The position numbers were made by a program, and so were the translations under genes. Shown here piece by piece: positions 2,995 to 31,284 of a stretch of 64,000 bases of DNA. This DNA is from Escherichia coli. GTDB lineage: Bacteria; Pseudomonadota; Gammaproteobacteria; Enterobacterales; Enterobacteriaceae. The notes below the pieces were generated by a model. It searched no databases. It saw nothing but the letters and a program-made list of their open reading frames with translations, and was not told where the DNA came from. Positions within the stretch are counted from its first letter, which is position 1, and the number at the start of each line of letters is the position of its first letter. The stretch lies in NCBI RefSeq assembly GCF_029227855.1, contig NZ_CP074356.1; one strand, written 5' to 3'.

Positions 2995-6049
<3,055 letters not shown>

Positions 6050-10047: not shown

Positions 10048-10104
10048 TCCATGCCATTAAAAAAGAAACAAAAGGGAAATGCATCTTTCCCTTTTGTATA
10101 TTCG

Positions 10105-10965
10105 TTATTCTCGCGATATACCATCCAACGTAGACAACACTTCCTCAGAAAGATGCAATTTTTCAGCAGCCATATTCTCCCGTAAATGCGCAACAGAAGA
10201 CGTCCCTGGGATCAGCAAAATATTCGGTGAACGTTGTAACAGCCACGCCAGCGCCACCTGCATGGGTGTTGCACCCAGGCTCGCAGCAACATCCGACAGC
10301 GTAGAGGATTGCAGCGGTGTAAAGCCCCCGAGCGGGAAGAACGGCACGTAAGCAATGCCATCGTGGGCCAAAGCATCAATCATTGCATCATCAGCACGGT
10401 GCGCGATGTTGTATTCGTTTTGCACACAGACAATTTCGGCAATCTTGCGCGCCTCTGCAACCTGCGTCGGTGTGACGTTGCTCAGGCCAATATGTTTTAC
10501 CAGGCCTTGTTGTTGCATCTCTGCCAGCACGGTCAGGCTGGCCTCAATCGATCCTTCCGCTGGGCCATGACCATCCCCCATCATAACGCGCAGGTTAACC
10601 ACATCCAGTACGTCCAGGCCGAGATTACGTAGATTATCGTGCACCGCTTTTTGCAACTCTGCCGGAGAACAGGCGGGCAACCAGGAAGCGTCCTCTCCAC
10701 GCCGCGCACCAATTTTAGTGACAATTGTCAGGTCGTCAGAGTAAGGATAAAGCGCTTCGCGGATAATCTGATTGGTGACGTGCGGACCATAAAAGTCGCT
10801 GGTATCAATGTGATTGACGCCCAATGCCAGCGCCTCGCGCAGTACAGTTATAGCGACGTGGCGATCTCTTGGGGGGCCAAAAACCCCAGGACCTGCCAGT
10901 TGCATCGCGCCATAACCAAGACGGTTAACGGATTTTGTACCGAGAGTAAATGTATTGCTGCTCAT
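10105..10965 (-). CDS. ydbC: Aldo-keto reductase family oxidoreductase
   Basis: 286-aa ORF, AKR fold (GYGAMQLAG... HIDTSDFYG). Confidence 0.88.
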   Translation of the reverse strand: MSSNTFTLGTKSVNRLGYGAMQLAGPGVFGPPRDRHVAITVLREALALGVNHIDTSDFYGPHVTNQIIREALYPYSDDLTIVTKIGARRGEDASWLPACSPAELQKAVHDNLRNLGLDVLDVVNLRVMMGDGHGPAEGSIEASLTVLAEMQQQGLVKHIGLSNVTPTQVAEARKIAEIVCVQNEYNIAHRADDAMIDALAHDGIAYVPFFPLGGFTPLQSSTLSDVAASLGATPMQVALAWLLQRSPNILLIPGTSSVAHLRENMAAEKLHLSEEVLSTLDGISRE

Positions 10966-27905: not shown

Positions 27906-27935
27906 TAAAAAAACGGCACCAGGTGCCGTTTTTTA
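27906..27935. terminator. Bidirectional rho-independent terminator between convergent tynA and feaB
   Basis: aaaaaaa-cggcacc-a-ggtgccg-tttttt: perfect hairpin flanked by A-run and T-run. Confidence 0.75.
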
Positions 27936-29687: not shown

Positions 29688-30593
29688 ATGAACCCCGCAG
29701 TGGATAATGAGTTTCAGCAATGGCTTTCCCAAATCAATCAGGTATGCGGAAATTTTACCGGACGCCTGCTGACTGAGCGTTACACGGGTGTACTGGATAC
29801 GCATTTTGCCAAAGGACTAAAGCTGAGTACCGTGACAACCAACGGGGTGAATTTATCCCGCACCTGGCAGGAAATAAAAGGCAGCGACGATGCCTGGTTT
29901 TACACCGTTTTTCAGCTTAGTGGTCAGGCAATAATGGAGCAGGATGAGCGTCAGGTGCAGATTGGCGCTGGCGATATTACGTTACTCGATGCCTCACGCC
30001 CCTGTTCGCTTTACTGGCAGGAGTCTTCTAAACAGATTTCATTACTTTTACCACGCACTCTGCTGGAACAATATTTTCCCCATCAAAAACCTGTCTGCGC
30101 AGAAAGACTGGACGCTGACTTACCCATGGTGCAACTCAGTCATCGCCTGTTACAGGAGAGCATGAATAATCCGGCACTTTCTGAAACAGAAAGTGAAGCT
30201 GCGCTACAGGCGATGGTGTGTCTGCTTCGCCCAGTACTTCATCAGCGGGAATCTGTCCAACCTCGCCGTGAACGTCAGTTTCAAAAAGTGGTTACGTTGA
30301 TAGACGATAATATTCGCGAAGAGATATTACGCCCGGAGTGGATAGCCGGAGAGACAGGTATGTCAGTACGTAGTTTGTACCGAATGTTTGCCGATAAAGG
30401 TTTGGTGGTCGCGCAATATATTCGTAACCGTCGTCTCGATTTTTGTGCTGATGCGATTCGCCATGCCGCAGATGATGAAAAACTGGCAGGTATTGGCTTT
30501 CATTGGGGATTTTCCGATCAGAGTCATTTTTCAACGGTATTTAAGCAACGCTTTGGGATGACGCCAGGCGAGTATCGACGTAAATTCCGCTAA
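29688..30593 (+). CDS. feaR: AraC-family transcriptional activator of tynA and feaB
   Basis: 301-aa ORF with C-terminal AraC-type HTH. Confidence 0.9.
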   Translation: MNPAVDNEFQQWLSQINQVCGNFTGRLLTERYTGVLDTHFAKGLKLSTVTTNGVNLSRTWQEIKGSDDAWFYTVFQLSGQAIMEQDERQVQIGAGDITLLDASRPCSLYWQESSKQISLLLPRTLLEQYFPHQKPVCAERLDADLPMVQLSHRLLQESMNNPALSETESEAALQAMVCLLRPVLHQRESVQPRRERQFQKVVTLIDDNIREEILRPEWIAGETGMSVRSLYRMFADKGLVVAQYIRNRRLDFCADAIRHAADDEKLAGIGFHWGFSDQSHFSTVFKQRFGMTPGEYRRKFR

Positions 30594-30628
30594 CTAATTC
30601 GCGTTGCATGTACAGCAACGCGAATTAG
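30594..30628. other. 14-bp perfect inverted repeat directly after the feaR stop codon
   Basis: ctaattcgcgttgc-atgtaca-gcaacgcgaattag; no clear U-tract on either side. Confidence 0.5.
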
Positions 30629-30764
30629 TTAAAACAGATATTTGACTATGCATTTTTCAGGGCGAAAGGCAATTTGACAGGAATTTTTGAATATTCACCT
30701 TGTTTCCGGAAAATAGAATAATCGCCTTCTCCTGTAGCGTTATCCCGATATTGCGGTTTTGCTA

Positions 30765-31091
30765 TTAAAATTTTCGCACCCATTTACCGTTTATCCCTTG
30801 TACATATTCCCCCGGTTTAGCCCGAGCTACGAGCTTTTGCCCGGCGAGTTTCGCGATATCATCTACCGAGACATTATTTTGCTTTGCCAGTTGTTGGTAA
30901 CTCGCTTTACGTTCGGCATTAATGTCGTTTACTAATTTCTCTGTTTCAGCATCTGTTTTCAGCGCAACCAGATAACCATAAAATGTTTCCCCTACCCGCC
31001 CCTGAGTTCTGGCTTCATCCAGAGTCAATGCCATTACATTGCTGCTTACAAGCCCAACAAGAAACGCACAAAGAAGTAATGTTTTCTTCAT
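30765..31091 (-). CDS. ydbL: Periplasmic protein YdbL
   Basis: 108 aa from MKKTLLLCAFLVGLVSSNVMA (signal peptide); the track ORF is N-terminally extended. Confidence 0.85.
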   Translation of the reverse strand: MKKTLLLCAFLVGLVSSNVMALTLDEARTQGRVGETFYGYLVALKTDAETEKLVNDINAERKASYQQLAKQNNVSVDDIAKLAGQKLVARAKPGEYVQGINGKWVRKF

Positions 31092-31098
31092 CATCGCC

Positions 31099-31284
31099 TC
31101 AGAAAAGATCGCTACGAGTCTCAAGCAGCTCTTCGACATCTTTGTCTGCCTTGATGATGATCTCATGCTCAATTTTAACGTTCATATTGATAGTGATCGG
31201 TTCCTTAGGTGCAGCGACTTCAATGCGAGGCGTACAGCCAACCAGCATAAAAGATGACGTCAACGCAGCCAGTAAAATTTTCAT
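31099..31284 (-). CDS. ynbE: Small lipoprotein YnbE
   Basis: 61-aa ORF with lipobox MLVGC; start overlaps ydbH stop. Confidence 0.85.
   Translation of the reverse strand: MKILLAALTSSFMLVGCTPRIEVAAPKEPITINMNVKIEHEIIIKADKDVEELLETRSDLF

Follow-up and report, generated by a model that had tools for sequence, protein, structure and literature searches.

In Escherichia coli, stable stem-loops without a U-rich tail have been described that mark the 3′ ends of transcripts terminated by Rho and protect them (Dar & Sorek 2018, PMC6061677), an idea that has been traced to Peters et al. 2012. Members of this class combine a stable stem-loop with the absence of both a U-rich tail and an upstream A-tract, and the sequence just downstream is rut-like, with an excess of C over G (PMC6061677). 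Terminators of another kind are prevalent between convergent E. coli genes (Ju et al. 2019; Wang et al. 2022, bioRxiv 10.1101/2022.10.23.513370). These do not look like intrinsic terminators, their hairpin is a site of pausing and polymerase collision, and they are described as independent of Rho. REP/BIME elements act both as stabilisers in 3′ UTRs and as partial Rho-dependent terminators (bioRxiv 10.64898/2026.03.23.713779), and the lower stem of bidirectional terminators often consists of the two hybridised tails (Kingsford et al.). Palindromes are also shaped by mutation: template switching occurs in quasipalindromes during replication (PMC7202029), and it has been argued that this process preferentially turns imperfect inverted repeats of E. 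coli into perfect ones (Lavi et al. 2018, PMC5941160).

The DNA analysed here is a stretch of 64,000 nucleotides from E. coli contig NZ_CP074356.1, referred to as the window, in which a long perfect dyad lies between feaR and ydbL. Gene names were taken from the RefSeq annotation of a strain that is identical over a 401-nt query (window 30400-30800). The annotated gene order is tynA (+), feaB (-), feaR (+), ydbL (-), ynbE (-), ydbH (-) and ldhA (+), and it contains no feature at the hairpin. The hairpin stands at the head of the spacer, between the convergent units feaR (+) and ydbH-ynbE-ydbL (-). It is 134 nt from the ydbL stop codon, inside the ydbL 3′ untranslated region, and the feaR transcript would bear it at its 3′ end. 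The coordinates of the features and the allelic states of the one multiply variable stem pair are collected in Table 1.

Table 1. Features of the tynA-ydbL region in window coordinates, and states of stem pair 30600/30622 among 125 sampled sequences and in complete E. coli genomes
Feature	Position	Strand	Remarks
tynA/feaB bidirectional intrinsic terminator	27908-27934	both	AAAAAACGGCAC-cag-GTGCCGTTTTTT; tynA (+) and feaB (-) converge on it
feaR CDS (AraC-type regulator)	29688-30593	+	RefSeq annotation of strain identical over the 401-nt query
Region downstream of hairpin in ydbL direction, antisense to feaR	30300-30590	-	C-rich RNA and peak of Rho region
Dyad left arm	30591-30607		TAACTAATTCGCGTTGC; begins with the feaR stop codon, TAA
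Dyad loop	30608-30614		ATGTACA, 7 nt; 30608 and 30614 polymorphic
Dyad right arm	30615-30631		GCAACGCGAATTAGTTA
feaR-ydbL spacer, 171 nt	30594-30764		single-copy, E. coli-specific, most polymorphic part of the locus
Region downstream of hairpin in feaR direction, antisense to ydbL	30700-31100	+	GC skew negative; possibly rut-like
ydbL, last gene of ydbH-ynbE-ydbL, convergent with feaR	30765-31091	-	RefSeq annotation of the strain identical over the 401-nt query
G-C, K-12 type	30600/30622		41/125; ~1432 complete genomes
G-C plus CA-to-TG at 30607-30608	30600/30622		39/125; ~1330 complete genomes
C-G, window type	30600/30622		25/125; ~880 complete genomes
C.C mismatch	30600/30622		15/125; ~409 complete genomes
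A-T	30600/30622		4/125; ~144 complete genomes
G.G mismatch	30600/30622		1/125

A preliminary description of this DNA had reported a 14-bp dyad, ctaattcgcgttgc-atgtaca-gcaacgcgaattag, at 30594-30628, starting directly after the feaR stop codon. The sequence and position are correct, but the arms are in fact 17 nt long and the left arm takes in the stop codon itself (TAA, 30591-30593). The whole dyad therefore spans 41 nt, with two perfect 17-nt arms and a 7-nt loop. When T is present at 30614, as in K-12, an eighteenth pair (A-U) is added and the loop is reduced to 5 nt. The stem had also been called unusually long and perfect, and this holds: among perfect inverted repeats with loops of 3-10 nt it is the longest in the 64-kb window, where the runner-up has arms of 12 nt. 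By our own estimate about 3e-5 perfect 17-bp repeats are expected by chance per window (64000 positions x 8 loop sizes / 4^17). The feaR/ydbL dyad is not a chance feature.

As RNA, the dyad is a G+C-rich stem-loop, with a stem of 17 bp around a GCGUUGC/GCAACGC core. The 41-mer folds with -24.9 kcal/mol on the + strand and -25.5 kcal/mol on the - strand, corresponding to z-scores of -9.6 and -8.0 respectively, and none of 200 shuffled sequences folded equally well. The hairpin also dominated local folds on both strands when 211-231 nt of context were included. In the minimum-energy fold of the + strand, the last feaR codons (30555-30564, GGGAUGACGC...) pair with the spacer near the ydbL stop codon (30738-30747, GCGUUAUCCC), so that the hairpin is enclosed in a longer-range structure (z -4.85 for 30540-30770).

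The preliminary description had seen no U-run on either side of the repeat, and two kinds of analysis bear this out. A consensus terminator scan made no call at the dyad. The sequence beyond the dyad is AAACAGAUAUUUG on the + strand and GCGGAAUUUACG on the - strand, and the tails that were scored (AAACAGAU... and GCGGAAUU...) contain no U-rich tract of 7-8 nt directly 3′ of the stem. Tail scores were calculated with the TransTermHP formula as given in its paper, where candidates are retained at scores of -2.5 or lower. With the full 17-bp stem the scores were -1.55 and -1.60, which fail this filter. When only the 10-bp core was treated as stem, with UUAGUUA as tail, the score was -3.34 on both strands, a marginal pass. 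The canonical tynA/feaB terminator in the same window served as a control and gave -5.3 and -5.6. The feaR/ydbL element is therefore not a canonical intrinsic terminator. At most its shape recalls a very weak bidirectional terminator in which the two tails now form the lower stem. This marginal terminator-like tail of the 10-bp core had been missed in the preliminary description, as had the 17-bp extent of the repeat with its stop codon and the convergent arrangement of the genes.

The two palindromes are alike in being hairpins between convergent genes with A/T-rich outer stems. The feaR/ydbL dyad differs from the tynA/feaB terminator in having no T-run on either side and a far weaker tail score. 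They also differ in a divergent Escherichia locus (L005, described below), which has a 27-nt, 100% identical match to the tynA/feaB palindrome at the corresponding position and lacks the feaR/ydbL dyad.

Published transcriptome data from K-12 were then considered at this position. By megablast, the hairpin corresponds to 1446340-1446380 in MG1655-like genomes. For the strand antisense to feaR, a Rho termination region with a Rho score of 4.03 and p 1.3e-5 is on record at K-12 1446501 (+) (Adams et al. 2021, PMC7815308, supplementary file 2). Without bicyclomycin, 54 reads were counted in the 800 nt upstream and 14 in the 800 nt downstream; with bicyclomycin the corresponding counts were 87 and 91 (PMC7815308). 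K-12 1446501 (+) is equivalent to about position 30470 on the - strand of the window, so that a transcript coming from ydbL would meet it approximately 120 nt after the hairpin. A Rho region past the hairpin indicates that polymerases arriving from ydbH-ynbE-ydbL pass through the hairpin before Rho stops them within the antisense of feaR. The signal does not fall across the region when Rho is inhibited (87 versus 91), and this speaks against the hairpin being an efficient terminator without other factors. Bicyclomycin also unleashes antisense transcription and may thereby add downstream reads. In the published K-12 data, the evidence for Rho-dependent termination downstream of the stem-loop concerns the ydbL strand. 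With the Rho region at about 30470, opposite the 3′ part of feaR, the ydbL read-through RNA is antisense to the helix-turn-helix coding portion of that gene.

The base composition on the two sides of the hairpin was also determined. The 300 nt downstream contain 83 C and 56 G on the - strand, and 67 C and 57 G on the + strand, where the skew is clearly negative from 30700. An excess of C over G in both directions is the rut-like bias expected of untranslated antisense RNA. Term-seq 3′ ends recorded under three conditions (PMC7815308, supplementary files 1 and 3) include none at feaR, at ydbL or at coordinates 14461xx-14464xx, where expression is low; because of this low local expression, the absence of a listed end weighs little. 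In the TRS paper the coordinates matched nothing but a number of no relevance and entries for a different record, NZ_CP023861.1.

With these properties the element most resembles the class of Dar & Sorek. Its stem-loop is stable, it has neither a U-rich tail nor an upstream A-tract, C exceeds G immediately downstream, and on one strand a bicyclomycin-sensitive region follows at about 120 nt. It departs from that class in its stem, which at 17-18 bp is perfect and longer than usual, in that one hairpin would serve two convergent units and overlaps a stop codon, and in having no steady-state 3′ end mapped at the hairpin in the tables of Adams et al., where expression is low. With the collision terminators it shares a location between convergent genes, the presence of the same hairpin on both strands and a non-intrinsic appearance; unlike them, it is associated with Rho-sensitive termination on the ydbL strand. 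It is comparable to REP/BIME elements as an extragenic 3′ UTR palindrome that is proposed to influence both read-through and decay, and one whose presence varies among strains. The difference is that it occurs once in each E. coli genome examined and is unrelated to REP in sequence.

The preliminary description had suggested looking for the dyad elsewhere in the genome, and this revealed no further copies: across 5426 complete E. coli genomes, a single locus holds the 41-mer, and likewise its spacer. Extra places in the genome counts are due to the palindrome matching its own reverse strand, and an apparent second locus in H59, near yafP, turned out to be unrelated and a match by chance. Within the 64-kb window the 14-mer arm gave 8 matches, against 7.95 expected by chance; the six others carry 2-3 mismatches, and no second copy of the arm was found at 0-1 mismatches. 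A dispersed repeat or mobile element was rejected, since E. coli genomes carry just one copy of the dyad and of the complete spacer. An Rfam scan of 30300-31000 (E <= 10) returned only generic miRNA-precursor hairpin matches, the best with 28.6 bits against a gathering threshold of 90.

Comparison with other species was based on a FeaR-based genome scan that yielded five loci, among which L005 provides the sole comparison with a sister Escherichia. The gene order from tynA through ydbH is kept in all four comparison loci. In Pseudocitrobacter faecalis and P. vendiensis (L006 and L007, at ~3403-3410 of the loci) and in Pluralibacter (L008, ~3406-3412), feaR and ydbL meet stop codon to stop codon with 0-1 nt between them, and the stops read TGA then tta, or TGA then tca. 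The junctions in both Pseudocitrobacter loci and the Pluralibacter locus contain no intergenic space, hairpin or terminator-like site. With abutting stop codons and no terminator, these convergent genes must depend entirely on termination in each other's antisense. The L005 locus, from an Escherichia labelled E. coli SCPM-O-B-8794, has an unrelated spacer of 73 nt and no dyad, and this form of the spacer was found in none of the 5426 complete E. coli genomes. Identity between L005 and the window is 94.4% over tynA-feaB-feaR and 86.7% over ydbL-ynbE-ydbH, with the jump at the junction (position ~3400-3480), which suggests that the fea/tynA and ydbH blocks have had different histories through recombination. 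Across species, homology ends exactly at both stop codons, and the stop codon is TAA in E. coli and TGA in the others. The break in homology at the stops, together with the change of stop codon, points to the spacer and hairpin as a young, E. coli-specific acquisition.

Within E. coli the spacer is present in 4195 of the 5426 complete genomes. In about 500 genomes feaR and the hairpin have been lost to an island or to IS1 while ydbL is kept; the ydbL operon therefore does not need the hairpin. The junction (window ~30390-30700; loci L002, L130 and L131) is a boundary of structural variation. In MS6198-type genomes a paaX remnant is fused to the last 207 nt of feaR and paa-tynA-feaB is deleted; in MP1-type genomes the sequence is replaced by another island that reaches to within 64 nt of the ydbL stop codon; and one further genome has IS1 at the feaR/ydbL junction. 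About 730 genomes gave no match at all to the 401-nt query. Genomes in which feaR is reduced to the 207-nt remnant retain a perfect hairpin, with the A-T allele.

Allelic variation in the dyad was surveyed by a flank-anchored scan of metagenome contigs, which gave 120 loci and, with five reference sequences, 125 sequences of the 41-mer; counts in complete genomes were obtained by allele-specific searches, and the first five states in Table 1 sum to the 4195 spacer-bearing genomes. The spacing of the flanking anchors was identical in all 120 metagenome loci. The only variable positions in the stem were the pair 30600/30622, found in three Watson-Crick and two mismatch states, and 30607 (arm position C17), where a C-to-T change produces a G.U pair on the feaR-sense RNA. 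Mismatch alleles made up 16 of the 125 sampled sequences and 409 of the 4195 complete genomes, about 10%. Every allele, in the complete genomes as in the 120 metagenome contigs, still folds, with energies from -14.7 to -27.6 kcal/mol. The C.C allele occurs on K-12-like left flanks and on two different flanking haplotypes, and so looks like a single-arm mutation rather than a simple recombinant. No intermediate was seen among the alleles for the double change from C-G to A-T.

A formal covariation test on the six alleles was not significant, as 51 of 500 shuffles reached the observed score. Variable sites were also not significantly sparser in the stem, where they make up 3 of 29 free positions, than in the spacer, where they make up 24 of 118. 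The allele pattern is suggestive of maintained pairing, and is not strong evidence for it; the polymorphism at one stem pair fits either weak selection or template-switch correction. The alleles resemble the products of quasipalindrome correction, with complementary changes in both arms and single-arm mismatch intermediates. The difference is one of kind: correction is a mutational process and not a function, and it explains how perfection is kept and not what the hairpin does. At the pair 30600/30622 mutation may be locally frequent, or template-switch correction may be at work.

We favour the interpretation that the dyad is a 3′-end hairpin shared by both convergent units, with Rho terminating beyond it and exonucleases trimming back to it, and put its chance of being right at about even. 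The elements from which it is built are established here or in print, namely the hairpin, the lack of a U-tract, the K-12 Rho region on the ydbL strand and the excess of C over G downstream on both strands. The feaR and ydbH-ynbE-ydbL transcripts would both carry the hairpin at their 3′ ends. Because it has no U-tract, the hairpin alone would not release RNA polymerase efficiently, and polymerase would read through or pause there and enter the antisense of the opposing gene. The antisense RNA, being untranslated and C-rich, would allow Rho to halt transcription. The 3′-to-5′ exonucleases PNPase and RNase II would then trim the tail to the base of the -25 kcal/mol stem, so that the mature 3′ end is set and protected. 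Such trimming may stabilise the mRNA, and the same mechanism may operate on the feaR strand. The preliminary description had proposed an RNA-stability element and not a terminator; the second half of this stands, in that the element is not a canonical terminator, and the first half agrees with membership of the Dar & Sorek class, given the Rho region and the C excess downstream. A physical effect of the hairpin on transcripts that cross it is likely. That the hairpin is kept by selection for this effect is much less certain.

The main rival is a possible, if somewhat improbable, alternative, in which the dyad is a neutral palindrome, part of a young lineage-specific spacer at the edge of a variable gene cluster, that stays near-perfect through template switching, by which a change in one arm is copied onto the other, and is under no selection. 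That two other genera and the divergent Escherichia lack the element at the orthologous junction would be expected, as would its position at a hotspot of structural change (the paaX-to-feaR deletion, the island replacement and IS1) and its dispensability in the roughly 500 genomes that keep ydbL without it. Mismatch alleles are common and lie on varied flanking haplotypes, the stem is not significantly poorer in variable sites than the spacer, and paired double changes such as C-G to A-T are a product of template switching (PMC5941160, PMC7202029). On the other side, a hairpin of -25 kcal/mol in a transcribed 3′ region affects exonucleolytic decay whether or not it is selected, and the position of the dyad, past a stop codon, in the gap of a convergent gene pair and upstream of a Rho region, is exactly the one to expect of such hairpins. 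It also persists in most of the complete genomes, and its length was constant in every metagenome contig. An unlikely reading is that of a weak bidirectional terminator, in which the 10-bp core UUCGCGUUGC...GCAACGCGAA forms the hairpin, UAACUAA/UUAGUUA serves as a poor A-/U-tract, polymerase collision completes termination and Rho acts as back-up. This would account for the core-stem tail score, which passes the TransTermHP filter on both strands, and is in keeping with lower stems formed by hybridised tails (Kingsford et al.) and with the known collision class (Wang et al. 2022; Ju et al. 2019). Yet the tail is far weaker than that of the control terminator, the first bases after the core stem are G-A-A, and the read counts under bicyclomycin on the ydbL strand speak against appreciable Rho-independent termination. 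The collision class is described as independent of Rho whereas termination on the ydbL strand is Rho-sensitive, and it is this Rho sensitivity that lowers the weight of a collision or bidirectional reading. Both operons also appear to be weakly expressed, so collisions would presumably be rare.

The hairpin could still be a pause site between the convergent genes. In a rather far-fetched version of this, the dyad is a positioning device acting in DNA or co-transcriptionally, a long hairpin or cruciform that fixes where the feaR and ydbH-ynbE-ydbL polymerases pause and collide, its perfection being maintained by templated quasipalindrome correction. If this were true, the three Watson-Crick states and approximately 10% of mismatches at 30600/30622 would be a snapshot of correction at a functional site. 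The suggestion in the preliminary description that the dyad might bind a protein is unsupported, and we consider it very improbable that it is the DNA operator of a dimeric regulator such as PaaX, the repressor of the neighbouring phenylacetate pathway. The perfect two-fold symmetry, the location beside the tynA/feaB/paa genes and the symmetric changes in the arms would all be expected of a dimer site, and TAATTC...GAATTA resembles the PaaX half-sites TGATTC...GAATCA. The published PaaX operator is TGATTC(N27)GAATCA, however, and the dyad reads TAATTC-N21-GAATTA (TAATTG-N21-CAATTA in K-12), so that the likeness fails on both spacing and half-site: the spacing is N21 instead of N27, and each half-site has one mismatch, or two in K-12. 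PaaX was rejected on these grounds and because about 50 sites in the window match its operator as well as the dyad does when spacings of 18-31 are allowed. The polymorphic position, with three different bases, falls within the putative half-site, and the element is at gene ends and not at a promoter. Typical operators are, moreover, much shorter than a fully paired dyad of 41 bp.

Candidate sites for NsrR were also noted in the window. A half-site-like sequence in the spacer, ACTATGCATTT at 30645-30655, was attributed to chance, since 7 window sites match AANATGCATTT with no more than one mismatch and roughly 4-8 were estimated to do so. The only perfect match in the window to the NsrR half-site AAGATGCATTT lies in the loop of a 12-bp perfect inverted repeat at 10068-10097, ACAAAAGGGAAA-tgcatc-TTTCCCTTTTGT, and is probably a coincidence. 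This repeat is followed on the - strand by TTCTTTTTT and looks like an ordinary intrinsic terminator after a 286-aa ORF at 10105-10965 (-).

The arrangement of a hairpin followed by Rho termination is known and ordinary, and the element described here is unannotated and specific to E. coli; beyond annotation, the dyad matters little. The series of alleles at one stem pair, represented in thousands of genomes, forms a small data set on compensatory selection versus template-switch correction. Together with the tynA/feaB terminator at the same locus, the dyad is a natural pair for comparing two strategies of forming transcript ends. As a shared 3′-end hairpin it would add one clean case of a single U-less hairpin common to convergent, Rho-terminated units, and it would fix the 3′ limits of both feaR and the lipid-transport operon ydbH-ynbE-ydbL.
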